A model generated the notes under the pieces. The model ran no database searches and was not told the DNA's origin. It was given only the letters and a program-made list of their open reading frames with translations. The position numbers and the translations under genes are program-made. Of a stretch of 64,000 bases of DNA, positions 11,044-46,913 are shown piece after piece. Position 1 is the first letter of the stretch. Each line of letters starts with the position of its first letter. The stretch is taken from contig NKIB01011255.1 in the NCBI GenBank assembly GCA_002256025.1, positions 1 to 64,000 of the forward strand. The letters run 5' to 3'. This DNA comes from Asterionella formosa. Its lineage: Eukaryota.

Positions 11044-11229
11044 TGTATTTATAGCATTTTACAGCGGTACCATGATCGTACATAGAACCGGTACTTACAA
11101 ACTATGGGTAGTCTCATGCCCCCTGCAAGTATACATGTGTTCGGGGCTGGTGGTGCAAGTAGGTTTACTGTGCGAGTTGCGTCCAAAGTGCTGCAAGAAC
11201 ATCGCCCTACAATAACCAACCCGCCAGCC

Positions 11230-13808: not shown

Positions 13809-15194
13809 TCATCTCACATTCGACCTGTGGACATGTTGGGACATTTCACTCCTTCTCGATGCATCCATAAATTCATTTACTTCTTCGTCACTCTTCGAGT
13901 TGATTTCATCGCGCAAGGCCGATACTACTCGTTCCATAGTAGGTCTTTCGGAAATCTGGGAATGCCAGCTTTGAGCGAGCAATTTTGAAATGTTGGCGGG
14001 CCATTTGGGGTCAAGTTTGGGACGGAAGCCACCACGAACCACCTTTTTGTCAAACATAGTCATATTGAAATTCTCGAAGGGCGTCGAGAGGTCCAAGATT
14101 TGCCAGGCCAAAATACTAAAAGAGTACACATCAGCCGTTTCGTTGTAAGGAAGTTCGAGCGCAACTTCGGGGGCCATGTAGCGGGGTGACCCCGTGTCAC
14201 CAGTCATTCTGTACGTCCCGTCGGCGAGGCGATCTTTGGTGTAAAATTCCTTGGCGAGACCCTATGCATATGGTTAGAAATACTATGATGGTTCAACAAC
14301 ATGTCTGTCAATTCAAATACCCATATGAACTGATCGACTACTTACAAAATCAAAAATCTTGACATCACCTCGCACATCAAAGCCAATATTGTCAGGCTTC
14401 AGGTCCCTGTAGAGAATATGCAATCCATGCAAATACTTGAGCGCACAACTCAAGTCATAGGCCACAGTAATTCTCTCTAACCAAAAGGCCGTCTGTCTCT
14501 TTCCTTTCCGATCCAAGACCTTTCCAAATCCAGTGACCTTTCGCTTTCTCCAAGAAATTAATCTGGTCGTAAGTATGTCATACAATCTGTCAAGGACGAC
14601 AAAGTAGTCCCGTGAAAACGGCGTTCCACAAGCCAATGCTCTCATTTTAACCACATTGGGGTGTCGAATCACAGAGAGAAATTTGGCTTCAATGGCCAAA
14701 TCGACAATGCCATTGATAAAGTAGTGCGGGTCGCTTGTTTTTTCGCTTTTAAGAATTTTGATGGCATACCTAGTATCCTTGCCCCCGCGAAGATAATTGT
14801 GTTGCATAAAGGACCTGTCTTGTACAGCGTTAGCAACTTGATGTTCATCGTCTTGGTCGGCTGGTACCCTCCGAGAGGCTTCGCCATCTGCGAGGCGAAT
14901 AGCTTTGATTTCAGATACGACACAAAATCCACCTCTTCCAAGGACTCGGCCAATGGTTAGTTCTGTGTGCGCGAGAACAAATAGAAAGCGTGTCAGCACA
15001 TGTGGTCGTGGGTAACATATCTTTTGCGCCTCAACGTTGTTCGTACCATTCTTATCGAATTTCGGCATTCGTTCCAGTGCATCTTCATCAATTATCGCGC
15101 TGGTCTTCATCTTTTCCTTGACCAATTCTTCTGCTCGCTTTAGTAGATGAGCTGTAGTGTATCCACCAATCATGATGTCCACTGGGTCCGCCAT
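13809..15194 (-). CDS. Ser/Thr (TKL-like) protein kinase, paralogue 2, 3 exons
   Basis: Exons 15194-15047, 14962-14346, 14261-13809; LGRGGF, YAIK, YRDLKPDN, DFG, MAPE; same intron positions as paralogue 1. Confidence 0.92.
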
Positions 15195-15932
15195 GATGTG
15201 AGGGAGGTTGTCAGTGTGTGTGTTACAGTGTGCACTCTGAGTTTTAGATTACTACCGGTATACTATGTGCACTATGATGTGAGTTTCGACAGTATTACTG
15301 TATCAAAGTGCTTGATGCAAGATGTTGACAGCAAAGCAAGGCAGGGACGAATGGAGTGAACTATGAACACTTTCGATCGTTTCCTTTTAGCTTTTATCCA
15401 CGATATGAGTGAATTTTCGTAAAGTCAGTTGCAAAACGACGAACTTCAATTGTGACGCTTTATCGCGTGCTGACATGTATTGCAGTGGTACTGGAGTACC
15501 TGGTACCTTGTACCTGGTAGAAAAATGTAGGACCTGGGGCTGAATTTGGGAGGGCTGTATGAAGTGAATTGGATCCTGTGGCATCCGATTGAAATTGCAT
15601 ACCGATAGGAGGAAGAAACGACACATCACTGAACGCCCTAAATGAAATAATCGCTCTCCAGAAATCGTGCATACCTTAAAACTACGGTACTCCGGAGTTC
15701 TCAGCAGCTATTTCCTACAATAGTGCGCAGGAATGCCAAACCTTAATGCACAGACGGACAGACTAGTGCGTCGACCGAGGCGGAACCATGTGCGTGGTTC
15801 CAAGAAGGGGTGGGAACTTTGTCGTCGAAACATCCAATGATCCTCATGCATCGTGGTGGCAGAACAAATATCATGCCCCGGTACTCGGAGAAACAGGTAC
15901 CGGTGCCAGGTACCGGTACGACAGGAGTACCT

Positions 15933-16683: not shown

Positions 16684-18349
16684 CAGAGGTTCAAAGCAGT
16701 TTTTGAGGTTGCGGCCCAACAATTACACATCGCGAGGTCTGTTTTTTTCCAAAATATTTTTATGATGTACTTCAAGATACACAGTAAGTTCAACTAAATA
16801 AAATAATTAAAGGAAAAATTAGCTTTCACCAATACAACCACTTTGCATACATGCTTAGATACAGTCATTGCTCAACTTAGGGGTATGATCTATATTCAGA
16901 TATGGTAAGGACCTCATTTCTGGAGAGAAGTGGCAGTTATCCCTCTTGGAATCGTAACTATCCAAAAAAGGGGCAACGAAGCTTTTCAAAAAATCTACGA
17001 AGGACAATTGCCACTTCTCTCCAGAAGTTAACTCCTGACATTATAGGATGCACGGAAAAAGTTTTTTTGATACGTAGTTGCCAATTTTTAATATACAAAA
17101 TATATATGAAATTTGGATCTGTAGCTTAATGTGAGTGTGCACATTAGGGCAATTGAGCAGGAGAAAATCATATGAATAAAGGAGAAATTATAAGAATTGA
17201 TGCAATTATTTCAACCAGAGGGTGTAACCTGGTGGGAGACCATGTATCAGTTAAGATTGCGGCCCCGGCTTAACGCTAGTTTGGAGAAAACATTGCTAGG
17301 GTTGTAAAAACGGCATGGAACAAAGAGTTTGCTTCTATGAATTGCTTACCATGATTCTAGTGTCCATTTGAATACTTGAATTATATAGGAATCGGCACCA
17401 GATTTATAGAGTTCCATTTTAAACAAACAAAAATGATATTTAAATGTTTATACCTTACCTTAGTGGCTGAATGTAGACATAATTTTGCTCCAAGAAGCCA
17501 AAACACATATATAAATCAGGAGTACCGGTATGCCAATATGCATACTCATTATATTATTTATACATCTATATTGGATCTACGTTGCTGTATGTAGGTTTAG
17601 TATTACTCTACGCCTGAAAGCACATCCCGGTATATAATTCGTCAGTACCGGAGTACTACTACTGGTATACTGGTAGTACATAATCTTCGTTCATGATGAT
17701 GGAAAACAGGATGAAACTACCAGTAGTACTGATTTTACCTACCGGTATTCAGTTCATCTAATACGAATGGTTCTAGGGGGTTTCATGAAGATTAAAATAG
17801 ATAGCAGTGTACCCAATAACGTCAGGAATTAACTTCTGCAAAGAAGTGGCAGTTATCCCTCCTCGTAATTTTTTAAAAGCTTGCTTCGTAGCCCCTTTTT
17901 TGGATAGTTACGATTCCTTGAGGGATAACTGTCACTTCTCTCCAGAAATGAGACCCTTACCATAGCTGAATTTAGAGCATATCCCTAAGTTACGATTCCT
18001 TGAGGGATAACTGTCATTTCTCTCCAGAAATAGGGCACTTACCATAGCTGAATTTTGAACATACCCCTCAATTACGATTCCTTGAGGGATAACTGTCACT
18101 TCTATCCAGAAATGAGGCCCTAAACATAGCTGAATATAGAACATACCCTTAAGTCGAGCAATCACTGAATCTAAGCATATTCCAAAAAATGATACTATTG
18201 GTGAAAACCAATTATACTTTTAAGTATTTTATTTTGTTGTACGTAAATTATGGATTGAAGTATATCATAAAAATATTTTGGGATAATACAGACCTCGCAA
18301 CAATGTGTAATTGCTGGGCCGCAACCTCAAAAACTGCTTTGAACCTCTA
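16684..18349. mobile_element. Repeat family B: foldback-like element with long inverted arms and internal ~66-bp tandem units
   Basis: Arms about 16684-17050 and 17810-18349 begin/end AGAGGTTCAAAGCAGTTTTTGAGGTTGCGGCCC; 3-4 tandem units 17905-18150. Confidence 0.75.
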
Positions 18350-19709
18350 TTTCACTATGTTCGATCGATTAGTACGACTTAACACTGAAAGATTTATTTC
18401 AAGCATCGTGGATTCTCCAGATGTTCATGAGAAGTGGGGAATTATGATTGGACAAACGATTCAATCAGATTCCATCTGCAATAGAAAATATGATTGTTTA
18501 TAATGACGCATTTATCCATTATAGAGGTTCATCAAAGTGGTACATAAAAATATCTTATTTTCGTAGAACTAATTTATGTTCCACAGGCGGGAAGAGGGAT
18601 TACAACGTTTCATAATGCAAATTCACCATCAATTACTCGTACTACATACGCTTGGTTTGATTTCTACTATGGGTCTAAACAAATGTAGGTGCGATCTAAA
18701 TAAATATATGAGGATATGGTTTACCTAATTCATGTATGTGTACATATGCCTGTATACTCCTAGGACATGGTAAACAGCTATTTTTTTTTAAAAAGGGTGA
18801 TCGACACTTTCACGTAGTAAACAAATCAATCATACAAATGAATGTTCAATGTAGCTCGTACACACATAGATAAGCGCTTCATGCTCAGCTACAGATAGAT
18901 CGTTTCAGATCTGTAAACTATCAGAAATTCATGACAAAACGTCTATTCTATGTATAGAGATTCAAAGCGGTAAACTTTACTTCTTTTACGATTGTATTTT
19001 CCATGTCGTTCTTACAGGTAGCAAGAAGCAAAGCGTCGTTCTCAATTTTCGTGGAGAAAATTCGTATTTTCGTCATGGTCAGCCAAGGTTGCTACAACAT
19101 GATGAAGGAGTCTCCAGCTGCTCACAATCACTACCCGTCTTCTCTTGCGTTTTATATGTACAAAAGAATCGCAACATGACAGCTAAATAATTGGGTGTTT
19201 GGTTCCACCTCGAGAAAAATGTACAGGCGGATCCAGCAACCATAGGGAGGTCCAAGACAATGAAGTATACGGTACCATTCTGAAAGAACTGCTTTGTTCG
19301 ATTGCATATCGAGATTATTTCCCATGAAATGTGAAATACCGGCAGTTGAATTAGAAATCAACATATTTGATAGTACTTTTAAATTACGTAAACAAATTTA
19401 ATACATTACGTGAACTATATTATAGAATTACGTGGACAAAATCATAAGGCAATGTGAACTAAATTACAGAATTAATTGAAGTATTTCAAATAATTATGTG
19501 AAGGTGATCACGTAATATAGTGATGATCAGGGATGCATGCATGATACTCTGATCAAATAATTAACGTGATGTATTCAGATAATATATAGATATATTCAAG
19601 TAAGCATTTTGATGTATTCAACTAATTCATGTCATCCATTCAAAATCAACTAGACTTATTTACGTGATGGTCACTTCACGTAATACGCGGCTTAGATGAA
19701 ACTGAGAGC

Positions 19710-20670
19710 AATGGCAGGCAGGATAGAGTGAGAATGATAATTGTGAGGATGAAATCGGTCATACGGTACGTAAAGTCAATGGAATATGTGAACAAAATAT
19801 TTTAACATTCTGGTGTCATAAAGATAACACCGAGTCAACAGCATAAATATTATAACGTGTTCAAAGTAAGCATTAAAGTTTAGCTTAAACCATGCGTGGT
19901 TGTTTTGAGTACCACGTGCTGCGTGGTATGTAGGCTAGATGACCAGAATATCTGTTAAGCATCATCACATGCATTACCAGAGCAAAAACTCGCCACCAAC
20001 ATCAGATGTATCGATATCATCGTTCATCCGACGAAATATGGACGGTGCGACTAGCTACATGAATCCCTCGAGAAGACAAGCAATCCAACAACCAACCGCA
20101 TCCGTTAGACAACGAATCGCTACTGGCGTCATCAGTGAACTAATTTCGCTTCAAACCGGTCATGATGGACGACGATTGGCATGGTGAAAAGGTGAATTGC
20201 CGGAGTCCACTTTTCAGGAGACAAACAAAAACGAGGTGAATTTTAGATATAAATTATTGAAATCTGTATAGCATATGTGATGGTTTCCTTAAGTAGACCC
20301 TTGCCGATTTCGGCAATCCCAGGGCTGAAAAACCGAGGGGCAATTGGCGTCTGTTGTCTTGCCAAAATGCGAACATATGAAATATACAAAATATATTATA
20401 ATGATGGGGGCCATATTGGACCTTTGGCAATTTTCGAGGTGAAGATAGGAAATATACGAAATATACTTTGTATGATGGGCAATGATAGTAAGCTAAAATT
20501 GACATTTATGCTTTTTTTCAGTTGGTAAGCAAATGACGCGACGATACTAGCTAGAGCGGGAATTGCCTCAATAATACCCTTCTCGGCGGCTACTTGCCTT
20601 CTCGTACACATGTGTACTCGCAGGCATAAGACAACCTCGGGCGTCTACTGGTATTGCCTTCAACAATTGC
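19710..20670 (-). mobile_element. Repeat family A, truncated copy
   Basis: Reverse complement closely matches 55560-56500. Confidence 0.8.
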
Positions 20671-23358
20671 TCTTATAATCGACTTACTTTTACTAGACAG
20701 ACTGATCTGAACTTAACTTAACTGATCTTACTGGTAGTAACTGTTACAGTACCTTACATTACCTACCGGTAGTTGATCATGGTGGGCCTGCCCGCCACTG
20801 GGAAAGAACCCCCATTTGCCAAGCGCATCTGTTGATTCTAGTCCCTCTCCCATGGCATTCCCGCGCAAATATTCAACGTTGACAGCTGTGTGGGGCGCAA
20901 ATGCCGGCAGACTTTTACAACGCGATGTGGCGCTGTCTGACATGATGGAATACCTCAGACAAGACGGAGTCAGAGTGGCGACATTTGATGCCACCAATAG
21001 CATGTTCAAGTGCCGCTCTCATGTACTACACAAGCCTAAGCCTAACCCTAAGCCTGACCCTAGTAACGGAAGCAAACATTGGAGGCAAGCGCATGTTTCT
21101 AGAAAGTATTTGTGACAATGACGATTTGCTGGAGGAAAGTAAAAATAAATATTCGAAAGGTCCTCAAGCTGAGCACATGTGACCGGATAACAGAAATATG
21201 GAGCCGGGCCAGAGAAGGCAATGGCGGATTTTAATTGGGAAGCATAGAGAGCAGTACATGTCTGTCTGCCTGTATCAGCCAGCCAGTATCCAACAACAAG
21301 GATGGGCCGCATGTTTAGATTATCAATTCAAAAACTTATTTATTGTCATCAACATTACAGGATACTCTGCACGTACCTTCCCCTCAAGAACAAAGTTGTG
21401 CACTTTGGTATCAATTTGCATATGCTTCCTTTGAACTGCCTGTTATCTGACTCGATATGGACAGTCAGAATACAATGTTCTGGGTAAGATATGTGAAGAC
21501 TCCGGACTCAGCGAAAAATGAAAGGAATATACATATACCCATCATCTGGCCAAGTTCGCCAATGACCATATTACCATGACGGATGGTACAATAAGATTTG
21601 CCAAGCAGGTTATATTCAGCAAATTTCTCATCAGCAACTCCACCTCGAGAAGCTGCAGCACCCCCACACCCACAGGACCAGCAGATCAATTCAAATTCAA
21701 AGTCAACGAAAAAAATTTCATTTCCCATTGGAGGAATTTCTCGTACTCTTGCTTCTTGAGGCTAAATTAACGGTACTCAGGCTATAACTTATCGTTGATA
21801 CAAATACACAGCTTTTGGGCCGTTAATCATGCCATCTTTTGTGTCACGCCAGACATTCTTGTGTACCGTGTCGGCCATCTTAACACCAAATAGTTGTATT
21901 GTATTTCAAATACAAATACATTAGTATCGCTAGGATGGAAACCAAAAAATAATTCCCCCCTTTTCGAAGACAAATTTACTACATTGTATATACATACTTT
22001 TCACCAGCAGTTTCCTTGTCAATGAATACTCATCTTCATTGACAAGGACGACATCGCATGTTCAAATCTCATGGTCTTTTCGCTTGTATGAACAACACAA
22101 CTGATTTGAATTGTAAACAGGATGGCTGTTCAAAGGGAATATCGTGCCGGCTGATCAATTCATGCTGTGCAACAGGCGCAACAGTTGCATCAGACACAAC
22201 AGCAAATTTCCGACTTGCTTTCCCTGCGGCTTTTGTTGTTGTTGCAGCTCAGTTGGATGACATGTCCTGCCTCCGTGCCTTCTTCTATGTCAGACCAATC
22301 TCCAGTGACGCTTACTGTCCCAGCAGCTGAGCGAGCCTACTGAAAATGATTTCATTGATAACTATGATTTGGATGGAAATGATAATGACTATTCATTGTC
22401 GGAAAAAGTTGTTCACTTCCTTGGTGGATACATCGCCCCTGAACATTGGGTAGCCTGCAAAGCTGTTTTGGTCTTTCATGCTGGCTCGAAAACCAGCAAG
22501 CTTGCATCTATGAACAAAACAGCAAAAGAGATGGCTTGTCTATTGGCATATAAGCAGGCGATTGCAGGATTAGACTCTACGCATTTTTCGGTTGAATCCC
22601 GGAAATATTTTGCTTGCTCCTTTAAGAAAAAGGATGAACCAATGACCTCTCAAGCTCTTTACCAATACTATTTGGATTCAAGGAGCAAGATGAGGTCGTG
22701 TGCTGTTATCCCTTTGTTGCCAGTAAATTTTGTATCTATCCTGCCAGTAGAGAAACAGATGATGGAATGGTGGGCAAGGACATAAGACCACGTTTGGAGA
22801 AGAGGCAACTCAGTGAAATGAAGCAACAATCATGAATGCAACGGCAACAGCAGCAGATGCAACAACAAATTCTTTAATAAAGTACTGGTAAGTGTAGCAA
22901 CTATCCTACATACATGTATATACTATCATGCAGCAAGACAAAATTTCTACTAGTCATGTTAGTCTAAAACTAAAATCGAATATTCTATTTGATTCTTGTG
23001 TGGCCACACCGAAAACCATTCAATGTTTTTGGTGTGGCCACACAAGAAATATGGTCGTTTGTGCTGTGTATTGTATTGGAAAAGGTGACGCACACAATGA
23101 AATTTGATGCACAGACACACAAATGGCATGTACTGGTATGTGTCTGTATTTGTGTTACGCTAAGAAATAGCCTCATTTACCGGGACCTTGTCCCTCATGT
23201 ACCAGTAGTCCGCCTCTACCTGTACCTAGTACAAACTGCTGTATCGTACGATTAAAATAAGGGAGTCATACCGCACTTCTACCGCCAGCAAAGGATGGCA
23301 TGACCAACAAAGAAAGATCCAAGGACATTTTGTTATTACTAACAAAACATCATTCACG

Positions 23359-24804: not shown

Positions 24805-26284
24805 TTAACGAGATCGGAATTCGTCCAGCACGGACGCTAACGCATTCTTCCTCCTCTTCTTCTCCGTGTGTTCAATGGTAGGTTCTTCGACATCAAAACT
24901 GGGCTCTTCAAAATGCCACAAAGCGTGTTCATTAGCAGATAAGCCCATACCAGCCGTCATATTGGCCAGGGGGAGAATCGAGAAAGGTTCTTCCAATTGA
25001 ACCGATAGCTCTTCAATACCAAAGAAAAAGAAGGAGATAATCGCGGAGATTGGAATCATACCAACGTGATTCCAGCTCTATAATGGTTCCAATGAGTGCG
25101 ATAGAAACGGGTAAGAAAAATGTCTTCGGTGATAGTAAATGATGACACATGCACTGATCACACATAATGCTTTACAACAGTCAATAACGTACATTTCCAA
25201 AGGAAGCCCACATGGCAAAGGGCATACCCAAAAGCCATCCACCCAAGAATCTCGCTGTGTGTCTCGTATACATGAGTGGGACCGGCGACGTGAAGATGCG
25301 ATCACAGGCTCCCATGGCATTGGCAAATTCTACGCAACTTTTATCGACTTCAATGCGGCGCAAATAAGTCATGGGCAAATCATTAATGGCATTGGAAAGC
25401 TCGAAGAGTGCCCGACTTGGTTTGTGACGAGCAATGATGAGGCCCTCGGCCATTTCTGGAGGGCAACGTTCTCGTACATCCTTGCAATATTCTTCGCCAT
25501 CTTCTACTTCACCCAACAAGTGACGTTGGAGAGATCTAGGAAAGGTCCAGATTGTTAGGGCCAAGCGCTCTAGAGCTTGCTTCCGCTTGACAGGGTCAGG
25601 TTCGGCTTCTTCACTGACCCAAGAAGCACCCATTCTGGCAATATTTCGCGCGTGGTTGACGACGAGACCCCATGCCTTCCGAGCTTCGTCCCAACGTCCG
25701 TACGCAGTGTTGGTTCGAAACACTAATAGAATGATAAAGTGTGAGTTTTTCTTTATCAAGCCTATGATGGTACCAAAAGCATGCTAGAACTCACCCAACA
25801 ATAAGCCCAAGGCTGGACTGGCCAAGGTAAAGGGGCTGAGTGGCAATTCCAACACGGGAAGGCCCTGAACCAGTGGATCGTGGAGATTTCCAGAGAAATC
25901 CGCGTATCCCCCCGCCATGAGACTATTCCAAGTTACAACAAAGAATGCTGTCGCCACAACGATCCCAACTTCCTTGGCCAACTGGCGAACAACGCCCGAC
26001 TCCAAAATGGAGAACATGGTCCTCAGAAAGCGATCCTCAGATCTGTGCTTCAACCAGTCCTTGTGAGTGAAGAAAGATCGACGGAACTTTCTCGATGTTT
26101 CTCCGTACGACTTCTCGGGTGGGGTTTGGAGGGAAGTCGCCGAGAGTTGCATGAGATCGGCAGTGCGAATTTGTTCTTTCACGGGAGACGCTGATTTCGG
26201 CGCCGAAATGAACGCAGTCGATGGATAAATCGCAAGCACCAACAATAAGCTCATCGCCTTCATTTTTTTGACTAAAGACACCAT
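24805..26284 (-). CDS. Plastid bestrophin-like anion channel (UPF0187/VCCN1/BST family), copy A, 3 exons
   Basis: Exons 26284-25795, 25722-25193, 25077-24805; STA/F presequence; LGLLLVFRTNTAYGRWDEARKAWG, PVPLMYTRHTARFL, GIEELSVQLEEPF. Confidence 0.93.
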
Positions 26285-26451
26285 TTTGAGGGGACCTGCT
26301 TGCTTCTGTAGTCAATGAAGTTACCTTTGAGTGCGATTAATGTCAACACAAAATGAGAATAAAAACGGCAAGGGATCCACAAGATTTTAATGAGAGCGTG
26401 ATGCAATGCTGTCGTCACTCTCATGTCTTCTACCGGTACATTTCATTACCA

Positions 26452-28023: not shown

Positions 28024-28408
28024 AGGGAATGGCTTAGTGATTTAGCACGTTGCCTTTGATCTGAGGTTGTGCGGTTCGATTTTCACAAATTTTTTGAGAA
28101 GCAATTGTTGGGTTCGACTCCCAGACCCACACTCCTTACCATCCCGCATGGTCTTGCCTGGTGTGCAAGAAATACCGTAGTGGGTTGCCCCCCTACAAGC
28201 AGCAGCTTGTACCGCCTTCCTAAGCGGTCAGAGTTTCCCCTAATGCTGCGACTACGACGAACACCTTTCTCAAAAGGTGGTTGGGGACTCACCTATGCTA
28301 ACAAAACCAGGGAAGCACAGGTCTTGTCTGCAGGTGGTAGTATAATGAAATACTTGCCTATAGAAATGTGGGAGTACGAATGAACTATAAAACATACTAA
28401 CCTTCTTA
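28024..28408 (+). mobile_element. tRNA-derived SINE-like element, copy 1
   Basis: A box TGGCTTAGTGA, CTTTGA loop, B box GGTTCGATT, second B-box-like GGTTCGACTCC; colinear with 43797-44166. Confidence 0.7.
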
Positions 28409-31043
28409 AAGATCCGTAGCTTTGAGCAAGCCACATGATAGAGAAATTAAGGGGGAGAAAATCATAGGAGTCAAAATGTCCCAGGAGAAATTTGAATTAT
28501 TGATGCAACTATTATAGGACAGAGGGGGCAATTGAGTTGGAGATAATCATAGGAGTCAAAATGGGCCTGAAAAAAATTGATTGATCGATGGAACTATTAT
28601 TGGATGGAAGGAGTGCTAAGCAGTAGTATTGCTCCATGTGATAAATGCAAGCCCATGAATAGTGAGGCAGAGCAAACAAAAATAAAATGAAGTAAATGCA
28701 AACATCATCAAAACTTACATAAAAAAATCAAACATACCCCCTGTAATCATGTGTCTGCATACTACTGCTACATAGTAGTTTTACCGCAATATCTTTTATT
28801 AGTAACCTGAAGTTTGACCAACCCAGTATTGAAGCCACCTGGTACATTTATAAATCTACAAGGTAGACTACTGGTAGACGCCTGACTGTTGCAGTGGGCG
28901 GTTCATGCAAGTTGCGGAAATTTTGCTGAACTAAGGATTTAGCTGTCTTTATCCAATATTAAATTGTTTTATTTGAGCAAAATAACCGCATATGGTTGTT
29001 GTAATACCTTCAACTTGCGGTCATTTTTCTGAAACAAACAATGTGTCACCGGACAGCAACATGTATTATAATGTATTAAAAGAACATTTTCTATTCATTG
29101 CACGATTCAGCGAAATAAACAGCGGAATTCTTCTAATTGCAAAAACGAGAACACACAGCATATGAATATGACTTTCAGGAAACTTCAGGAAAGGTTAGGA
29201 AATGCGTCAGGAAAGGTTAGGAAATGCGTAAGAAAATTTCAGGAAATGCATGGAATTTCCTGAAGTCTCTAAAATTATTCTTTCAGGCCAGAGTGAAAAA
29301 CAGCATATCCTTCGTTCTGTATTCTTTAATGTACCAGGTACCCTACCGGTAATAGTTATGATCATTTGAAATCCTGGTAGTGGTGTTCCTAACTATTATA
29401 TGCAGTATATATATTCAGTCTGTAGCCTCAAAGTGCCCCTAACCATACAAGAAAAGCTAATCATTATTTCCTTTAGTTTGCTATCATTTACCCTGTTTAT
29501 GAGGTCACTCATACTACTCAAAGCACCACCATTGTCAATCAATTGACATAGTTACTCCGAGTACTCCGTACCAGGTTAGTGCTATACCGGTAGATATATT
29601 ATCTAAAGAAAAGAATCCAATAATCTAAGCTAAATAATTACCGGTATATACAAGTGTTTACGAGTGCTACCTCGGGTACCAGTACCAGGTACGATGGTAC
29701 CACGTTACCAGGTACCCTGAGCTTCATGAGTCCAGCCACCAGCACCATGCAAACGGTGGAATTGTGTAATAGTTATATTGGGTAAGACTAGTTGTCACTT
29801 ATGATGACGCTAGCATGCAAATATTTCAATTCCTAATAGATATACCGGTAGAACCGTTCATTATTGGTTGTTTTCATCACTTCGGCCGGAAGAGGAGAAA
29901 GATTTTGAGTTTGGAGAGAATAGAGCAACGTAAGCAAGATTTGCTTACTTTTGCTTCGGGCCGCCCCTCTATTGCCCCAGTCATTGTCATTTTCTTTTTT
30001 CAGCCAATTGCCTCGTTTTGACGTATCCATGTTTAGACGAAATAATTATTTACGTCACTAACTAGTCGTGATACTTTACCGGTAGTCGTTTTGAGTGCCT
30101 GTCCTGCGTCATGTTGTCCATTTCAGCAAGATGACCGCAACTTGCTGGTCTTGGTAGCCAGTTTTGTATGCCATCCAAAATATTTTTGCACCTGAAATTA
30201 TGAAATGTGAAGGTACTGCATTGTATTCATATGCAAGCAGGCACAGCTTTTAGCCATACACTGTTGCATGAAAGACGAATACCGGTATATGATGATATAA
30301 GAATTACAGTTGCCTGCATTAGATATATTGTTGTGAAATTCCTTCAATTGTTGTTGTTTTAGCTAGCCAAGTCGTAACAAGAATCAATGAATCATTTTTC
30401 TAGCACAAATCTAGTTTGTACAAAACAAAAACAGAATTTCTAGTGATGATTGTTACTGTACATCTATCATAGTTCGAAGTGAGAAATTATCCCTTTGGCG
30501 TCATAAATGTAGAGAACTCCTTTTCAGTTTGTACTTAAAAAGCAAGAATTTCACTTTTTTCCAAGAACAGGTTTGTTGTTTCATTTCTATTTGCTGTCAT
30601 TTCCCAGTGCAACATTTGCTGTTGTGTTTTCATACCTCCCTTTAGAGCGACTTTGGCTTCTTGACTTGGCAGATTGTTCACTCCTACTTTTTATACTTTA
30701 CAGCAGAAGTTTATCTTAACATATTGCACAAAAAAGCTCTGCTCCTATCCTTGTCAAAATAGTAATAATCATGTTGTACTGTATGTCTTCATTGAATTGA
30801 TTGTATACTGAGAAAATCAGGAGTAACATCCAAAGATCAAACTGATCACCAACTGAACGGGCGTCTTTTGTCTACAAACAGCAATGTCATTTCTCAATCA
30901 ACACACAGAAAATGGTCCACCCCTTCTCCTAATGTAGTGCCAAAGTGCCAAGCAATCATATTTGCTCCAACTACTTGCACACACTCTCTCTTTCTTGTAT
31001 CTATAAATGTTTCTATCCTCATCAATTTGTGCATCAAGAACAA

Positions 31044-32422
31044 TTAATCAAATGGTCTTCTCCTTCCAGGATATCCTTTGCTATCAAGTTCAAAATGCCA
31101 TTCAACATGTTCCTCAGCTGACAAACCAATACGGTCTGTCATATTTTGCAAGGGGAGAATTGAAAAGGGCTCCTCTAATTGAATGGCAAGTTCATCAATA
31201 CCAAAGAAAAAGAAAGAAATCACTGCACAGGTTGGGATGAGACCAATGTGATTCCAGGTCTAGTTTTTAAAAACGTTTGAGAGGGGTTTAGTATCATTCC
31301 TGTTTTTCAGGAATGTGAAAAAATTTCATTTGATGTGCAAAATCGTATAAACTTACACTATCAAAGGAAGACCACAGACCCAAAGGCAATCCCAACATCC
31401 ATCCACTCAAGAATCGGGATGTGTGTCTTGTGTACTTTAGTGGAACTGGCGAAGAAAATATGCGATCGCACGCTCCCATGGCATTGGCAAATTCCACACA
31501 GCTCCTATCAATTTCAATTCTGCGCAAATAAGTCATTGGCAAATCATTTATGGCATTCGAGAGCTCAAAGAGTGCTCGACTGGGCTTATGACGAGCGTCA
31601 ATAAGCCCTTGTGCCATTTTGGGAGGTAGCCGTTCCCTCACTGCCTCGCAATATGCACACTGGTCTTCGATGCTACCCAACAGATGACGTTGGAGGGATC
31701 GAGAAAATGACCAAATGGTTATCGACAATCGTTCCAACGCCGCACGACGTTTGGCGGGATCAGGCTCAGTCTCTTCACTGATCCACGAGGCCCCCATTCT
31801 CGCAATGTTACTGGAGTGGTTAACAATGCTACCCCATGCCTTGCGAGCTTCATCCCAGCGACCGTACGAAGAGTCAGTTTTGAAGACTAATGGTATGTGT
31901 GTGTGAGGATAATTGATTGTATGCAAAATGATAAGACGGCGGAATCAGGTAGGGCTACTTACCCAACAATAAACCTAATGCCGGAGTAGAAAGCGTAAAG
32001 GGCTCATATGGTAATTCCATCAATTGTAGATTAGGCAGGAGCGCAGCATGGTGCAACCCTGAAAAATCGACATATCCTTCCACCAACAGAGCATTCCAAA
32101 GAACCACAAAGGCAGCCGTTCCCACAACGAATCCAACTGCTGTTGACAGTTGACGAACGACCCCAGAGTCCGCTGCGCTGAGAACGAGTCTCATGAATCG
32201 ATCATCGGATCGATGATTCAACCAGTCGTCATGCGTGTAGAATGTGCGACGGTACTTTCTCGAGGTTTCCCCGTAGGTTTGCTCAGGTGCTGGAGTAGTC
32301 TCGTCGATGGAAGCCGAAAGTTGTGCAAGACTGCGAAGTTGACGCTGTTCTTGCACCGCGGTGAACGCAGTTGATGAATGCATCACGAGGAGGAGGGCCA
32401 ATCGCAAAGGAAACATCATCAT
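31044..32422 (-). CDS. Plastid bestrophin-like channel, copy B, 3 exons
   Basis: Exons 32422-31963, 31886-31357, 31259-31044 (last exon translated by hand: TWNHIGLIP..GIDELAIQLEEPF..RRPFD*); STA/F presequence. Confidence 0.9.
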
Positions 32423-33668
32423 TTTCGTCAATGCAGGTGACTTATAAAATTACTTTTGTGACTTCTCGTTTTATCACAAAATGTAACGGTCATAATGGAT
32501 GGACTCTGGTAATTTTGCCGCACTGAAGAGCTGTACCGGTATTGTATCATCATTGTTCCTTAATCATTTTTTGCCGATGGTCTTCTTCGTCGTTATATAT
32601 CATCATGTTCAGCTCTCCGCCGGTCCATGCTCTCCTTTTTTCGTTGCATTTGCCATCACGGTGACGCCATCACTTCGAATTCACGACTCAATCATCAACT
32701 ATACTACCGGTACCGGTAGTACCTCGTATTTTGTGGGACTCACAAGAGTTCAACGCACACTAGCTGGTACAGTCCTATTCTAGATGCCAGCCGGTACCTC
32801 TTCAGGCTCCGAATTGTCTTTCACTACGCCTTGGATTCCTGATGTCTCAGGCATAATGCATATTGCATTATGTATACCAGATGCTGGTTCCAGTTAAAAA
32901 CTGTAAGCCACTGTTGTTTTACTCCATCTTCCAAATGAAAATGTTTAAGTAATATAACTATCGAAACCTGATGCAAGTTACTACTAAGTGTATGTTAGAC
33001 GATGCACTCCACTCAACGAATAAGTTATCATTTTTGATTCAGTGTATTGAGCCATGGAGATCTAATTTTTTCAAAGTCTGTAAGATTGTCGGATAATGGT
33101 GACTTATTTTTACAGTGCATATTTTTCTACACGTACATCAGTATATTTTCCCCCCAAACAACCGTGATTATTTTTACTCCGTTTTATGCTACAGAAATTC
33201 TTCGTATTACTTTAACTGTCATGCGCGATACAAGATGCGTTATGCGCTTGCATAATTTCTAAATTCTTCTCACGCATTCCGGGTACTGGTAGTGTGTTCG
33301 AAAACACAGTGACGTCGTACCCTTATTTAATTGTGCTAAATTAATTCTGTCATTTTTGTCCATGTACACATACCAATTATTTTCACAACAGATTTTCAGC
33401 CATCAAATTGAGCGGACCTTGGTATATTAAGTGTTTCGTAAAATGGCCAACCAACACCAAGAAATTTGACAGAATCAAATTTACCAAGTGACCTACAAAA
33501 AATCCTTTCGCTAGAAGCTATATACGTTGGGGTTCAACTTTCAGGGAATTTTGATAACTAACTATTCAAAAACAAGTGCTTTGTAGCTCAATTGTTATGT
33601 ACTGTGACTGTATCACTTACTGACTTGCACCCTTGTCATCCAGACATGGAGGTATACTTGTGTACTCT

Positions 33669-35109
33669 CTAAAACAAATCTCTAGATCGAGATGCCTCGG
33701 CCATGGAATCAGCAACCAAAAACTTTGTGGTTCCTCCATTCACGCGTCGGCCAGGGTTATCAAGTTCAAAATGCCAGTCAGCATATTCCTTGGCAGACAA
33801 GCCCATACCTGACGTCATGTTGGCCAAGGGAAGAATTGAGAATGGTTCTTCCAATTGAACAGCCAGTTCTTCAATACCGAAAAAGAAGAAGGAGATAATG
33901 GCCATGACTGGAATGAGTCCAACATGGTTCCAGGTCTGTGACATACCGGTTTACAGTGGAGAAATACAATGTCAAAAGAATGAAAATCAGAACTGCTTGT
34001 TCTCACACGAATTACAGCAAATCAACAACTTACATTACCAAAGGATGACCACAAACCTAATGGAAGTCCAGTAATCCATCCCCCCAAGAATCTTGCCGTG
34101 TGCCTTGTGTACACAAGGGGAATCGGAGACGTGAAGATACGATCGCAGGCTCCCATGGCATTTGCGAATTCTACACAACTCTTATCGAGTTCAATGCGGC
34201 GCAAGTAAGTCATGGGCAAATCATTAATGGCATTGGAAAGTTCGTAGAGAGCTCGGCTTGGTTTGTGACGAGCCACGATGAGTCCCTCGGCCATCTTGGG
34301 AGGGCAACGTTCTCTCACATCCTTGCAATACTCTTCGCCATCTTCCACTTCCCCCAACAAATGACGTTGTAGCGATCTTGGAAACGACCAAATGGTCACA
34401 GCCAAGCGGTCCAATGAAGCGCGTCTCTTGGCAGGATCAGGCTCGGCCTCTTCACTGGTCCATGAGGCCCCCATTCTGGCAATGTTGCGGGCGTGATTGA
34501 CAACAAGACCCCATGCTTTGCGTGCTTCGTCCCACCGTCCGTAGGAAGCGTTGGTTTTGAAGACTTTATTGAAGAAATAAGCATCATGTGTGAGAACAAG
34601 GATTTACTGCATGGACCGAATTCCGTAAATTGGAAATGTTACTCACCCAATAACAAGCCCAACGCTGGACTGGACAGAGTGAAGGGTTCAATAGGCAGCT
34701 TCATCAATGGTAGGCCCTGAAAAATAGGATCATGCTTTACACCCGTAAAGTCCACGAATCCCTCGCCCAACAGACAGTTCCAGGCCACGACAAAGGTCGC
34801 GGTTGCGACAACGAATCCAATTTCCTTGGCCAGTTGACGAACGACACCCGATTCCACTATGGAGACAAGGTTCCTTACAAAGCGATCTTCGGATCTGTGC
34901 TTTAACCAGTCTTTGTGAGTGAAGAAGGAGCGACGGAACTTTCTGGAGGTTTCTCCATAGGATTTCTCACTAGGTGGCTTCACTGAAGCTGCTGAGAGCT
35001 GCACCAGATTATTGCTCGCAGTCGTTCGCGGGCGCGACGTGAAGGCACCGGATGGATTCATTGCGAACAGGAGTAGCAAGCTCATCATAAGTTTGGTTGG
35101 AGACTTCAT
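33669..35109 (-). CDS. Plastid bestrophin-like channel, copy C, 3 exons
   Basis: Exons 35109-34647, 34563-34034, 33935-33669; SGA/F presequence; same motifs and intron positions as copies A and B. Confidence 0.93.
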
Positions 35110-35404
35110 GATTACTTTCTGCTTCAGAGTTCTGCTCAGAACAACTCTTTGATCAATGGAGGGAGAGATGAACAATTGGGGTAGAGAAATAAATGAGAAA
35201 TAATTTTAAAACAACAGAATACAGTACTACCGGTACCCATACATATAATTGCTGTGCATAATCATACGCAAACTGTATATACCCGCATGCAATGTATCAG
35301 AATATCTAGACATCACGTGAATCTTTTGTTACAACGCAAAGTGCAGGCGGGCAGCAGCGGGCAGGTACATACCGGTTTATACGTATTGATGTATGTTACT
35401 GCTT

Positions 35405-35539
35405 ACGTCACTCCTTGTCAGCAACGACGTCAGCGGAAGTGTTTATCATTGTTGGCTTCCTCATCTTTTTTCGTCATCGGGTTCGGCCACCGCCGTGATG
35501 GTCAAAGCGCGCATTACGTAGGTTGAAGTCTTGACGTCA
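35405..35539. promoter_or_regulatory. CRE/CCRE-like bZIP motifs upstream of bestrophin C
   Basis: ACGTCA 35405, ACGTCA 35427, perfect palindrome TGACGTCA 35532. Confidence 0.6.
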
Positions 35540-36881
35540 GCCAATATTATGTACAAGGAGTGAAGTCCCGGTACTACTAGGTAACATATCAGTTTTACCA
35601 CATACACGGAGGTCATATGACAGCTTGGTACATATGAGGAATTCAACGTACTGGTACCAGTATCATACTACAAGACGGAATCCAGAATCCATTTGTATGA
35701 CTCACTTGATGTTGTTTGAATTGATGAAATTGCTACATAAATAATGCATGTATGAAATCGTACATGGTTTTCCACGGTTCAACTGGGGCATACATAGTGC
35801 TCAATGCACAACATGTAACTTACGTCTAGACTTTTGAGTAAGTACTAGGTACCAGCATGATGCTGTTTCAAGGTGTTTGATACAACTGTCCATCATGACA
35901 ACAATGAATGCAAAATTCAGTTGGGGTCTACTGACAGCCAGTTCAACTCGAAAAATGAAACACGATTTAATTTGCATCAACTTGTTAAAATGAGGACCAA
36001 CTTATTTTTGAGTTGTTGGATGACTCTACAGTCATAACAAAAAAAGTAACTCATATGGAAAGCGAAATTTTATTTGGGTTTGCTGAGCGACAGATTATTA
36101 AAATTCAAATTATAATTTGGGTTGAGTTGAGTTTGACAAGTTTTATTTGAAGAAGAGAAGATTGACATAATTTACCATCAAACATTGAAAGTGATTCTGT
36201 TGATTATTACCAATTTATGTTAGCATGATGGAGGGGAAAATTGTGATACAAGGAAATAATACATGAATAGCAAATCTTGGTGTACTACTGGTACTTACCT
36301 AGCTAACTTGTTTTGATTATGCATATGGACCTACATCAACTACTAAATGCGTTTGTGCAAGGCCTAACAAGCGCAACAAACAGTCGCCATGAGGATGATT
36401 AATGGGAGCAGCCATCACGTCATGCAACAATGAAATGATGATGCATAAAATTGTGTTGATCATGATGGGGGTATGTCAATGTTTAGTCGTACTAATCGAT
36501 CGAACGTAGCGAAATAGTGGTTCAAAGCAGTTTCTAACTTGTACTGGGTACTGTATGGAAGTACCTGGTACCAGGTACCCCCCCCCACCAATGCTACATA
36601 GGCGGATATATCTTCTGATAGGTACCTAATAGTACCTGGAAGGTCTGGTAGCGCACATTTTATGTGCACCTTTTCAGTTTTGACCCACTCAAAATGATTC
36701 GTCTTATGCCTGCCAGATGAGATAGGACAGCTTTCGATGGAAATCATAATCCTTTATTGACCGATGACGATTGGCAGAATCAGTCTCTGAACACGACTCG
36801 GATTTGCTGACTGATGAACCTGTTCAGCAAACCGTTTTCTAGCTTCGGAATGTAAATAGGAATCATCTCTTTTTAAAGGGT

Positions 36882-36948: not shown

Positions 36949-38900
36949 GTGGATACGAATAGATTTTCTGAATAACCCTTATGCCTATGAAGTATATGCA
37001 TGAACAGACACAACCACTACCCCTGATAGCCTTGCCAATACTATGAACATAGGTAACATTATATCTATATACATGGTCACAGTCACTATCACGCCTAATG
37101 CAACAGCCTAACATCTGCGGTAACAGGCGCCACTATATTTGTAATATCATAAATATCACATATACTATGGCCATGCACATATGATATATGCTCAGGATAC
37201 CCAATGTAGCCCTTGTAGACGATAATATATAATTGTTTAGATTAGATGTTGCGATTTTTTTTATGTATTAAGCGCTACAATGTAGGAGTAGTTCTTGTGA
37301 GTGGCTGAAGAATCCTGCATCATGCTATCTCCGCCTTGACTATGATGAAAATAGCGAATTTCTCCACAAAATATGAGAATGATGCTTTGGGTACTACTAT
37401 CTAACACGACATAGATAATACAATCGTAAAAAGTAACTGTAATAACATTGATATTGATAACGAAAATTGAAGTCGCCGATGGCGCATTTTTTCATGTACT
37501 TTAGACAACAATGCACAATTCAAAACGACAAAGTAATGACGAGATTTAACACTTTCACAGTATGCGACCTCTAAACTACAGCAATCTGCAATTCGAACCA
37601 AATTATATTTGATTCTCTTTCTTATATAAGCATATCAATTAATAGTCCATTGAAATTTTCAAAATTACTCTTTTGTTAATAATTACTGATCCAGTTGGTC
37701 ACTACATATGGCCGGATGCATCATGAAACTACATTGGGTAGCCATCGTAGCTACCGGTACAAAATAATTTTGGCTACCAGTACAACATAATTTTAGCTCA
37801 AGTAAAATGTTCTATATAAATAACATACATATGTATAAAGTTTTTGCACACATGCATCCGTGATCTTGTTGTTGTCGACGTTGCATTCATTCATGACAAA
37901 CACGAAATTGAAGTCCAGCCATTGCGCAGCGATGGGTGCGTGTGAAATCGTTGTTGTATCTTCATTGCAACTTCTACATGATGTTATTTGAGACATTCCT
38001 GTAAAAAATTTCAACTCCAGCTTGCCCACTATCAAGCTCAAGAGGGTGAAACCATTGGTCACCATGTAGGCGTGGATCTCTGTGCCCAACAAAAAATAGT
38101 TCATATAAAAAGCAAAATGTGTCGTCCTGTGCCGCTTCCGGTGTTTAATAGTAGCGCTACTCATGGAGGAAAGAAAGCTATTTGAAGCGGCACGGGAGGA
38201 TGTTCTATTGTTGAGTAAAGCAACAGAATAATAACAACATGGTGGATGTGATTATAACATGCCAATCCAGGCGCAAAATATTATATACCATAGGTTTAGG
38301 GTTTATGCTAACACTAGGCCTACAGGGTAGGGTCTACGCGGTGGCCCCAAAAATTGCATCCAGCCATATGACTAGAAATCTGCTGACAATGACTAGAATT
38401 TGCTGACTACGACTAGAAGTTACTGATTGGTGAATTCAATTAGTAAACCAACTTCCAGTTGCTGAATACCAATACCAGTAGGAGTAGCTAGGTGAAAACA
38501 ATATCAATGATCAGAGCACGACTTGGATTTAATGATTTTTAATTAAACGTAACTGTATAGAAACTTACTCAAGGGACTTTGGAATGGAAAGCCACCCTAT
38601 CTTGTCCGGTAGGGATGGGACGAGTCATTGGGAGTGAGTCGAAACTGAATACCGGTACTGGTAAGCAAGTGCGTATGAAACGTGCGCTACCAGGCTTTCC
38701 TGGTACCAGGTAGTACCAGGTACCACCATCAGGGACGTCACAGAAGTTTTTTTACAGATACATCCTTGTGTCGTACATTCTGGTATTCCGGTAAATCCGT
38801 GAACATGTCGTGAAGAATATGCACTGTTTCCATTTCGTCTCCTTCCTTCGCATTCTGCCAATGATATTCAAAATCGCATCTGAGCAGCACCCCACTCATT

Positions 38901-42658: not shown

Positions 42659-43059
42659 CGTGATACGGTTTTCGGTTCTGAGTTTGTGTTGACTTAAAGG
42701 ATTTTTTATCGGCTGCTTATGTGGTATACCATGAAATTTCAAAGCAGAACAATTATGTGAATCTTCGTCCTTTTCTAAGATAATTGATGACGACGACGGA
42801 CCAGAGTCGTCACATGAAGCACCTTTGTTGTTGCGGATACATAGGACTTTTGATCCCCTATGTCACCAACGGGAACGTCATGTACTTATTTTTGCTTTAA
42901 GAAGCGATTATTTTAGATGCTCGACTTTATAGTATGTATAGTCGACTAATTTAGCAGTTGTTTATGCCCCTTGTCTTGAGGGCTGCACCTGATAAGATAC
43001 TATTTAGAGACAAATTTGCCTCCTGCTATTAATTAATGTTGCTGCCCCTCAGATACAAA

Positions 43060-44490
43060 TTGCGAGGTCTGCATTTTACCAAAATATTAATATGATGTAC
43101 CTTAATCAGTACATTACGTCCAACTAAATAAAATAGTTAAAGGTTATCTTAGCTTTCACCAATACCTCCACTTTGCATACGCTTAGGTACAGTCATTGGT
43201 CGACTTGAGGGAACCTGGTATATAAGATAGGGTAAGGTCCTCATTTCTGGAGAGAAGTGGCAGTTTTCATTTTTGGAATCGTAACTATCCCAAAAATAGT
43301 CAAAAAAGGGGCTGCAAAGCATTCTAAAAATCAACAATAAATAACTGCCACTTCTCTCCAGAAGTTAACACCTGATGTTATCACTTAACTCCTGAAATTA
43401 TCACGGCAAAAAATTCTAATCTTCATGAAAGCAACCCCACAGGAGATGTAGAGCAATGCTCCTCAAAAAATGTCGACCTGATTGGCTTTCTCAACGGTTG
43501 CCAAAATATTGGAATCGAATTTGTACAAGCGAAATGTAATCTTGCCTAGATATGATGTTTGCCTGCAGAATTCTCTGTGACAAGACTTCATGGTAGCTAA
43601 GTTCCGTTCCCGCATCGCTACACATATTCTAATTGGTTGAATTGAATTTACTCGCCTATTCCAAATTGGCTGGAGTCTACCAATCTTGTAAAATCACGCC
43701 AGCCACACTTGAACCAGTACTACTGGTAGTGGTAGTTTTTCCGTCATCATGAACCAAGATTACATAATACGTATGTGCTGATTTGCTGTTATATATGTAA
43801 AAAGTTAGTATGTTTTATAGCCCATTCATACTCCACTATTTCAAGGCAAGTATTTCATTGTGCTACCTGCCGACAAGCAAGACCTGTGCCTCCCTAGTTT
43901 TGTCAGTGTAGGTGAGTCCCCAACCACCTTTCACGAAAGGTGATTGTCTTAGCCGCAGCGTTAGGGGAAATTCCGACCGCCTAGGAAGGCGGCACAAGCT
44001 GCTTGTAGGGGGGCAACCCACTATTTCTTGCACACCAGGCAAGACTGTGCGGGACAGTAAGAAATGTGGGAGTTGAACCCAACAATTGCTTCTCAAAAAG
44101 ATTGCGGGAATCGAACCTCACAACCTCAGATCAAAGGCAACGTGCTAAACCACTAAGCCATTCCCTATTTACGGGTATATATATATGCCTGTGGGCATAG
44201 AGAAATATTAAATCTACATCCCGCAACATAGATCCAATATCAAGATGTAAATATATATATCATTTCTTTTGCTTGAACAAGACCCATCATTTTACATACC
44301 AGCATATGACTGATGTATATATGTGTTTTGGCGTGAAGTAATATCATATCTACATTCACGAATGAAGATATAATAAAAATGTCTAAATATCATTTTTTGA
44401 AATGGAACTCTATCAATCTGTTGCCGACTACTATTCAATATAAATATTCGAATGTGCACTCGAATCATGGTAATTCACAGAAACAAACTC
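43060..44490 (-). repeat. Repeat family B partial copy carrying a nested SINE
   Basis: 43060-43770 and 44190-44490 match 17340-18300 in reverse orientation. Confidence 0.75.
43797..44166 (-). mobile_element. tRNA-derived SINE-like element, copy 2, inserted in repeat family B
   Basis: A box TGGCTTAGTGG, B box GGTTCGATTCC; interrupts a repeat that is continuous at about 17.6 kb and 1.15 kb. Confidence 0.75.
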
Positions 44491-46913
44491 CCTGTTAAAT
44501 GCCAATTTTGAACACAGAATAACACGTTTTGCTATCAAAAATTACGTAGATCTAAGTTCTGAGAGTTCTGGCTCCTTCCTGAGCATGTAAGCTAGTCAGC
44601 TATGTTACTAGTTTGAGACTTGGAGCAAGTTGTTCATCTTGATAGATCGCCTGAAATGGTCAATCGACCAAAAAACCATGAAGAGCACGGATTAGGGTAA
44701 GTTTAGAAGTGTCTATGCCATATGAAATACAATGATCAAGATAACATTTTCAATATTGATTTGAAACTTAACCTCATACTATGCGACAATTTATATCTTG
44801 TCTTGGTATTGACTTCTATGGAGACGGCAAATTATTTAGGTATGAACATGCGTCATGTATGGTTATGGGTAGTATACCAAGCAAGTAGGGTGTACGTAAC
44901 AGGTTTTCACAAGATGTTTATTAACACGCATGACAATTGCTTTAACACATGGCCTAATCCGTGATCAAAAATTTATATACATTTATCTAGAAAAAAGTAT
45001 ACACTGCCGGGACCCATTGAAATCACTTTTTAGTTGTTTTATAATCATCGTAGCATCTGATGAAATCGTTCAATGAGAATTTTAACAAGACAGCTTGACT
45101 GCCCCAAAAATGCTTGATGGACAATAATAAAATTAAAATATTGCTTAGGGTTGCCGAAATTCCCTGGAACTAAGAACTTTTATGAGCTATTTTTTAAAAA
45201 CATAATTCCACTTGAAATATTCAAATCAGTGGAAATTTGCATGTACATGCATAGATTCCTTCTCTAATTTGCTAAATATATAGATATTATATGTATACTG
45301 GTATACACTCTATACACCAATTGACCATTTTTGTGTCACATGACCGGGCGGCTTGGCAAATATTTGAAAGTGCACTCTAGGAGTGGTAGGCATATGTCAA
45401 ATGATAATCATCTACTGGTACCCATAGTGAATAGTATGGTACTGGTGTACCAGCGATCACCCAAGAAAATCTTACATGTGTGGCCGGTTAGGGTTTGCAA
45501 AAAAAGACCTCACAAACCAGGCCAATCAAAAATCGGTAAGTAATTGAACTTGACCAATAAAAATATTTATTGTGAAGCGGGCACTTGCAATGGCATTTTT
45601 GTCAGAAGACTGTATCTAAGCATATGGAAAGGGTGTAAATTGGGGAAAGGGTGTAAATTGGTGAAAGCTCTGTTTCTTAGTGATATACATTTACATTTTA
45701 CTTGTAAGAAGTTGTGTTCGACTACTCTGACTTCATATTTTTTTTTGTAACCCACCTCTTGCTTATCTAGGGTTGAAATGCAGGAACCTTACTTACTACA
45801 GGTAAGCAGGTTCTCCGAGTGTGGTACCAGGGGGGTACCAGGGACCTGATACCTGGTCTAGGTACCAGTTGACAATCAGGGAACAAGAAGGGAAGGATGC
45901 TGATATACCCCGGTATTCGGTGGCACTATCATACAGGCATTTGGTCTATCCACGGCCTGTTGTGTACCGAGTAATAGGTACCCTTGGAAGGTCGGAAATC
46001 GAGATATTTAGCTTCATCTTTTGTTTTTGTTAAGTAAAACCGTGTTTTACCGGACCTTCCCTGTAGCTTGCACAAGGTACTGGTACCTGGTAGTCTATGT
46101 AGAGTTTAATATGTATTCCAGCGTACCACCAGTACCAGCATCGGTACTCCTATCTTATACATCTTCAACTAATTAGAGTAACTACCTGGTACCTGGTACC
46201 TGGTACCAGATACCAGATACCTGACCATCAGGTATCATTCTACTGGTGTGCATGATGCATGATGCTGACGAACTGATGCATCTCACTCCAACTCTGCTGC
46301 AGACAGACGCTTCCATGATGCCAGTTGATGGACGCTGGGGACCACAACAGGCATTTCAGCACGCATATCAAAGTAAATAGTCAAGGGTGAGTGAAACGTT
46401 GGATAATTCGACAAATACGGATTCATTGCCTGCATTACTCCAAGGATAACGTTCTTGCTTAAGTGTGTTAGGACCTGGAGGAAAAGAGGGGCGAGAACAA
46501 AGTGCATTCAGTACTCGTTTCTTCCATTGATTGCGAGCCTCAGAAACGAGGTCAGCATCAGGGTTCCTAATCCTTGTACTGGCGCTCTACACAAGCGTTA
46601 GTACTCCTCTACGCAACCTTGAGCCCCTTGTATATATGCCCTGCACAGCTATAGTAGGTATCTTTGTGGTCGATTCCTTTCACAGGTGGTTCTGCAGTTG
46701 TCGTTAACATGGATCGCATTCGTTTGCAACAACTTATCTAACCTACAATCATTCTGCTTCTCCTTCCCGGTTGGTGTCTGCGATTTTTCAATGAGGGCAG
46801 TGTGGCGAGGCTCTATTATAGAACAAGGAAAGGCTGGATAGACTCGTACATTTCGACTTCGCAAAGATCACGTTCAAACACAAACACACTCACACATTTA
46901 GCATACAAGGACC

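Follow-up and report, generated by a model that had tools for sequence, protein, structure and literature searches.

Short palindromic words framed by TA dinucleotides are scattered over the non-coding part of the 64-kb stretch of DNA analysed here (the window). What process wrote them? We suggest, with a probability of roughly 0.6, that cut-and-paste transposons of IS630/Tc1/mariner type left TA-CCGG-TA, TA-CC(A/T)GG-TA and TA-C(C/T)GG-TA behind as scars at their donor sites; the ends of these transposons would start with CC(A/T)GG or CCGG. This reading draws on analogy with transposons whose footprints have been studied by experiment.

The window is eukaryotic DNA of about 42% G+C. Its intron-poor genes encode kinases, a VTT protein, a Fer2 protein, an EDR2_C protein, a GYF protein, an SNF2 ATPase and three bestrophin-family paralogues (24805-26311, 31089-32449 and 33669-35205, all on the minus strand). 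These paralogues and two of protein kinases (6579-7775 and 13809-15248, also minus) are 68-74% identical in DNA. The source runs of this DNA are labelled as algae, freshwater or lake metagenomes. Neither ARAGORN nor Rfam gave a match anywhere in the window.

Overrepresented words between TA dinucleotides

Under an order-1 Markov model of the window, TACCGGTA is expected 0.38 times and occurs 30 times, and TACCAGGTA and TACCTGGTA, together TACC(A/T)GGTA, are expected 0.32 times and occur 24 times, which amounts to a 75-80 fold enrichment. TACTGGTA and TACCAGTA, which form the TACYGGTA class with cores CCAG and CTGG, number 32 against 1.51 expected. Among the 136 classes of four bases between two TAs, CCGG and CCAG/CTGG take ranks 1 and 2, and CCWGG is first of the 512 five-base classes. 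Composites such as TA-CCGGTA-TA are among the leaders of the six-base classes, alongside words of repeated TA. Shorter cores are only mildly enriched, both CCG/CGG (9 against 3.5 expected) and the still shorter C and G. All classes of main words taken together count 86 in about 45 kb of non-coding DNA, or approximately two per kb. The overrepresentation described in the earlier note is therefore real.

The same holds for its claim that TA is the specific target. When CCGG is flanked on both sides by one and the same dinucleotide, an excess is seen for TA only; the other 15 dinucleotides count 0-2 each. Thirty of the 126 CCGG tetranucleotides in the window lie within TACCGGTA. At motif flanks, G precedes the TA in 42% and C in 28% of cases, as compared with 26% and 19% for all TAs. 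Because contigs from the runs of other studies cover the motif sites 30280, 32534, 32705, 32711 and 35228 without gaps, the words are not an assembly artefact. A contig of run X2 differs from the window within 34211-35700 by one other letter and is seven letters longer; this stretch includes the motif sites 35228, 35649 and 35655.

The TACYGGTA class deserves separate consideration, since a CCGG core can become CTGG by a CpG transition. Such transitions do convert the words: TACTGGTA at 1262-1269 is paralogous to TACCGGTA at 17740-17747 and has undergone a CpG transition after the insertion. At least this one TACTGGTA, therefore, does not stand for an insertion type of its own, which corrects the earlier listing of CCAG among the inserts. 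CpG decay as the sole source of TACYGGTA is not supported. Non-coding DNA of the window is only mildly low in CpG (observed/expected 0.70), and the 11 other classes of one-substitution neighbours of TACCGGTA count just 0-5 each versus 32 for CYGG. Two nearly identical metagenome loci discussed below (L070 and L071) contain two CYGG words and no CCGG. Judged from these counts, most CYGG words were probably made directly, and CpG transitions from CCGG to CTGG, together with slippage, supply secondary variants. That TACYGGTA is about as frequent as TACCGGTA counts against the account which the excision-scar explanation gives of this class.

Filled and empty paralogous sites

The window contains repeat copies that can be aligned to each other, and the earlier note had pointed to six places where one copy carries a TA-x-TA word and the other one a plain TA. 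All six pairs were recovered in gapped alignments. Each filled site is bounded by duplicated TA and each empty site has a single TA, with an extra substitution in two of the pairs. Four of them are exact TA-duplication indels. TACCGGTA at 6293-6300 lies in one of two tandem 84-base units, and the next unit has TA at 6371-6384, giving an exact 6-base indel. TACCGTA at 28173-28179 faces TA at 44015-44030 (exactly 5 bases), TACTA at 20545-20549 faces TA at 55659-55672, and TACCGGTA at 29639-29646 faces a plain TA within TATATA at 52440-52457 on the minus strand, the last pair being seen in the MAFFT alignment only. At the two remaining sites the TA duplication requires one extra substitution beside the site, and microhomology is absent if they are taken as exact indels. 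The first is TACCGGTA at 29843-29850, six bases of which are absent at 52286-52303 and at about 10600, with one adjacent A/G substitution. The second is TACTGGTA at 20646-20653, facing TA at 55570-55582, where the outgroup copy is unalignable. With the copies 76% and 86% identical, respectively, one additional substitution appears unremarkable, but it is a caveat.

Several other sites belong to the same picture. TAGCTA at 20052-20057 faces TA at 56147-56160 and might equally be a 4-base tandem duplication. TACCGGTA at 29585-29592 corresponds to TACCTGGGGTA at 52492-52509; here both copies are filled and their cores differ. A 13-base insertion at 56263 (56259-56279, plus strand), which starts with ACCGGT, is found in one copy only. 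Neither this indel nor the one at 19925 is a clean TA-x-TA.

The direction of change can be read from a repeat present in three copies: A (19600-20700) and B (55540-57050), which are closer to each other, and C (11180-12600), which serves as outgroup. None of the insertions at 20545, 20052 and 56263 (the last confined to copy B) is present in copy C; they are thus gains. At 20545, moreover, the three bases are absent from 96% of the contig depth summed over the repeat family (142,648 of 147,949 in run X1). At 29843 the six bases are missing from both of the other copies, so that by parsimony this is a gain as well. Third copies or read depth consequently make the long allele the derived one at all four sites that can be polarised (a third copy does not exist for the others), and the opposite polarity, a short allele left by deletion between TA repeats, was found at none of them.

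How large a share of mutation do these events make up? Self-BLAST of the window yielded 259 gaps, 62 of them clean. Three of the five clean six-base gaps are of motif type (four of six when 29639 from the MAFFT alignment is added), and none of the three seven-base ones is. By our own reading, the 62 clean gaps contain about 30 distinct indels of at least 3 bases, and some 6-9 of these involve motif words. In four repeat pairs we tallied about 13 motif events, to be taken as an order of magnitude, against approximately 350 substitutions. The pervasive mutational role proposed earlier is borne out in that motif words account for a large part of those indels between repeat copies that are at least 3 bases long. 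In a comparison with reads at 90% likeness, where repeat copies dominate, only 20545 touches a motif among the best 12 of 105 indel rows. We consider the interpretation of the motifs as derived micro-insertions at TA dinucleotides well supported by these alignments.

Stacks and arrays

Splitting the sequence at every TA gives 57 runs of short units that contain a main core. The runs combine CCGG, CCAGG, CCTGG, CTGG and CCAG with degenerate cores (CCAGGG, CCCTGG, CCGGG, CAAGG) and with very short ones (C, G, CA, CC). A stack at 29677-29714, for example, reads TA-CCAG-TA-CCAGG-TA-CGATGG-TA-CCACGT-TA-CCAGG-TA and has 33 extra bases, that is, five TA units, in comparison with its paralogue at 52 kb. 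Directly upstream of the ORF at 2553-3716, the region 1935-2315 holds several stacks in which TA-CC(A/T)GG-TA is mixed with degenerate units, and a double unit, TACCGGTACCGGTA, is located at 32705-32718 upstream of a bestrophin paralogue.

Such arrays invite an explanation by replication slippage, which would make the words microsatellite-like repeats of GGTACC(W) and the isolated ones their decayed remnants. TRF indeed reports period-7 arrays at four places (1938-1989, 2273-2315, 15496-15519 and 46183-46223), although with only 71-91% matches. At 46183-46205, three identical TACCTGG units form a homogeneous array which slippage fits as well as repeated hits do. Head-to-tail identity of units, the mark of a microsatellite, is local to this place and does not extend to the arrays overall: they are uneven in unit length and core (down to 71% matches), and five of the eight pairs of neighbouring main cores in stacks differ, while three are identical. 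Besides, most words are single units amid unrelated flanks, the empty site is TA only, and slippage cannot make CCGG out of a lone TA. We therefore find slippage hardly credible as the general origin of the words. Repeated independent hits would fit the arrays better, except for that at 46183-46205. The earlier equation of arrays with insertions can be kept for the heterogeneous mixed stacks, but a few arrays, such as the one just mentioned, look like plain 7-base slippage.

Position relative to genes

The enrichment in intergenic over coding DNA expected in the earlier note is nearly complete. Our coding proxy comprises 29% of the bases and 17% of the TAs of the window, and 85 of the 86 main words are outside it (P about 2e-6). 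The sole word inside, at 2486, is upstream of the first ATG of its ORF.

Many words are situated no more than 300 bases upstream of ORF starts (15253, 26431, 32534, 35228, 2442 and 38650-38714) and they are palindromes. Both properties would suit selected promoter sites for a dimeric factor, the filled and empty pairs then being produced by deletion between TAs. We regard this as very unlikely. The long allele is derived in all four polarisable cases, insertions are found within dispersed repeat copies, and deletion cannot produce an 80-fold excess. Further, TACCGGTA occurs 23-120 bases upstream of each of the three bestrophin paralogues, in unalignable sequence and at non-homologous positions, which indicates independent events and not an inherited promoter box. 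The mixed stacks with their degenerate units are also unlike the architecture of binding sites.

Related loci in metagenomes

A search of metagenomes with the SNF2 ORF provided 78 loci (610 kb), mostly of 70-80% protein identity and none from the same species; the closest one has 89% amino-acid identity over 160 residues. The same search with the ORF at 2553-3716 found no relative. Over all 78 loci, TACCGGTA occurs 22 times against 2.35 expected. The distribution of the two word types among them is uneven. L070 and L071, which represent one organism and are 99.95% identical to each other, have 9 and 10 TACCWGGTA, respectively, against 0.05-0.07 expected, and no TACCGGTA. These words lie in spacers rich in TA-C-TA and TA-G-TA. 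Conversely, TACCGGTA without TACCWGGTA is found in L040 (4 copies), L030 and L055 (3 each) and L044, L056 and L037 (2 each). Loci with a single type indicate that there are two separable scar types in different lineages, and the organism of the window carries both of them. No scar polymorphism was found within the near-identical pairs L070/L071, L055/L056 and L037/L038.

A few observations on individual loci may be added. The spacers of L070 and L071 (e.g. L071 12491-12506 and 5442-5466) contain many TACTACTA, TACTAGTA and TAGCTAGTA words. L006, L008 and L015, about 96% identical, show an ordinary indel spectrum free of cores of the CCGG or CCWGG type; two of their few clean TA-duplication indels (e.g. 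L008 1136 and L006 1644) have the core CGA, a hint that other lineages may own different scars. L052 (3255-3275) and L051 (4005-4020) exhibit a 5-base strain difference, TA-TGG-TA versus TA, and the longer form makes a perfect 16-base palindrome, GCTACCATATGGTAGC; this was seen once only, in an organism whose DNA is not enriched in the motif. Finally, L012 has at 5704-6115 a TA-flanked 408-base stretch with perfect 20-base inverted repeats (GAGGAGTGATC...) at its ends, likely a miniature transposon of another organism.

A possible model of scar formation

Tc1/mariner elements, in the portion of the review available to us, target TA, cut in a staggered manner and are repaired by end joining. 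Sleeping Beauty and mariner nick 3 bases inside the element, so that 3-base 3´ overhangs stay on the donor flanks and are joined into footprints between the duplicated TAs (PMC7827188). The available text on Sleeping Beauty lists the canonical scars TACAGTA/TACTGTA and six shorter ones, TACATA, TACTA, TATGTA, TAGTA, TACGTA as well as TATA (10.1101/659086).

The words of the window could be formed in a corresponding way. An element would insert at a TA and duplicate it. On its excision, staggered cuts would leave each flank with a few bases from the element's terminus (CC...), and end joining would close the flanks as TA, CC(W)GG and TA. Because each scar offers two TAs, later hits might stack scars into mixed arrays rich in GGTACC, and selection would clear scars from coding DNA. 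For ends that start with CCAGG, CC(A/T)GG corresponds to the full form, CCGG to the form without the centre and CCAG/CTGG to that without one base, while CCG/CGG, C and G are shorter still. This spectrum matches the canonical and base-missing series of Sleeping Beauty; since the grammar was fitted after the words had been seen, the analogy is weak as a test. If valid, it calls for a stagger of 5 bases with a mismatch at the centre, or else for overhangs of 2-3 bases joined with little loss. Were both ends to keep 2 or 3 bases independently, then about five CCATGG cores would be expected between TAs by our own arithmetic, and the window has none. An origin from hairpins or P-nucleotides was rejected because the inserted bases are identical at unrelated flanks.

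We infer the transposon as source, as well as its end sequence and the length of its stagger, from the words. An inverted-repeat element of the form TA|CC...GG|TA, for which the earlier note suggested a search, was found neither in the 64-kb window, where only arrays matched themselves, nor in the 610 kb of the 78 related loci. A transposase domain is likewise absent from the 73 ORFs of the window, and the 50 ORFs selected out of the 96 in nine loci, either scar-bearing or used for comparison, include no transposase. The idea of excision scars from an element with CC...GG ends accordingly stands in part: the words are derived, non-coding and stacked micro-insertions at TA sites, and their excision origin is put forward with neither element nor transposase found in this material.

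These null results would be natural if the micro-insertion did not involve excision of any full-length element. Candidates would be a transposase that is domesticated or acts in trans, an integration that is aborted, or a nuclease that cuts at TA, with the break filled from a fixed short template. The very high density of scars (86 main words in some 45 kb) speaks for a process of this sort, and so do cores of 4-5 bases, which exceed the staggers of 2-3 bases published for Tc1/mariner in the sections accessible to us (PMC7827188; 10.1101/659086). To yield such cores, excision would need a longer stagger or the retention of both overhangs, and this is a point against the scar reading. Against that, the grammar of the words matches transposon scars made experimentally, as far as the available text describes them (10.1101/659086), and a low-copy active cut-and-paste element would also leave many scars and few copies. 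We consider a process without excision unlikely and retain excision scars of a transposon as the preferred reading.

Other repeats of the window are described here for completeness. A 20-base inverted repeat at 9858/11303 was rejected as an element, since it belongs as a fragment to the A/B/C repeat family. Of large inverted-repeat elements there is only one, which is 1.7 kb long (16685-18348), has long inverted arms starting with AGAGGTTCAAAGCAG, ends in AGAGGTTC... and contains three copies of an 82-base tandem repeat (17906-18154), with relatives at 1480-1800 and 43033-43381. None of its ORFs has a Pfam match, and it is possibly a DNA transposon of the non-autonomous kind. At 19370-19700, some seven boxes resembling TTACGT(A/G)A are clustered; this region has the highest summed contig depth (approximately 2 million versus 900 in single-copy parts, run X1), so it is part of a very abundant repeat. 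A repeat with tRNA-like stretches occurs as two mutually inverted copies of 84% identity (28024-28404 and 43801-44166) and is perhaps SINE-like.

Implications

If the words are transposon scars, then a rare or vanished element wrote those words that are the most overrepresented in the non-coding DNA of this genome, and its scars would account for about a fifth to a third of the indels of at least 3 bases between repeat copies. Excision, and not insertion, would be the main mutational legacy of the DNA transposon. It would also have left a datable record of past transposition and a continual supply of palindromic GC-rich words beside genes. The words provide a simple k-mer signature by which such activity can be followed in other algae from metagenomes alone.

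A wider proposal can be made quite tentatively, as we ourselves hold it to be doubtful. Stramenopile algae might harbor undescribed TA-targeting cut-and-paste elements, or an activity derived from transposases, with a stagger of 4-5 bases and in two lineages leaving CCGG and CC(A/T)GG scars, respectively. At about one scar per 25-30 substitutions in non-coding DNA, it would be a leading source of indels and of new palindromic promoter sequence in these genomes. The portions of the literature available to us describe neither such scars in diatoms, nor the word, nor a genome-wide accumulation of footprints, and report no Tc1/mariner-type scars at a density of about two per kb. New in this work are the comparison with the non-canonical series of Sleeping Beauty, the paralogous CCGG/CTGG pair, and the contigs that contain only the CCGG or only the CC(A/T)GG scar.

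Comparison with known transposons

With Tc1, Tc3 and mariner, as presented in the accessible parts of the two sources (PMC7827188; 10.1101/659086), the proposed system has in common the TA target and its duplication, staggered excision without hairpins, and end joining that keeps bases of the element ends. It differs from them in that this window holds no mariner-like element or transposase.

The likeness to Sleeping Beauty, within what the available text tells of it, is closer. In both cases a duplicated TA stands on each side, the inner bases are nearly palindromic with an ambiguous A/T centre, shorter forms with missing bases accompany the full one, and the spectrum can be composed from a prefix of one end and a suffix of the other. 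Unlike the 3-base core of Sleeping Beauty, the core here has 5 (CCWGG) or 4 (CCGG) bases, and the source element is deduced from its presumed scars. Whereas the scars of Sleeping Beauty were made in assays, those in the window are fixed in a natural genome, at about two per kb of non-coding DNA, and are stacked upon each other.
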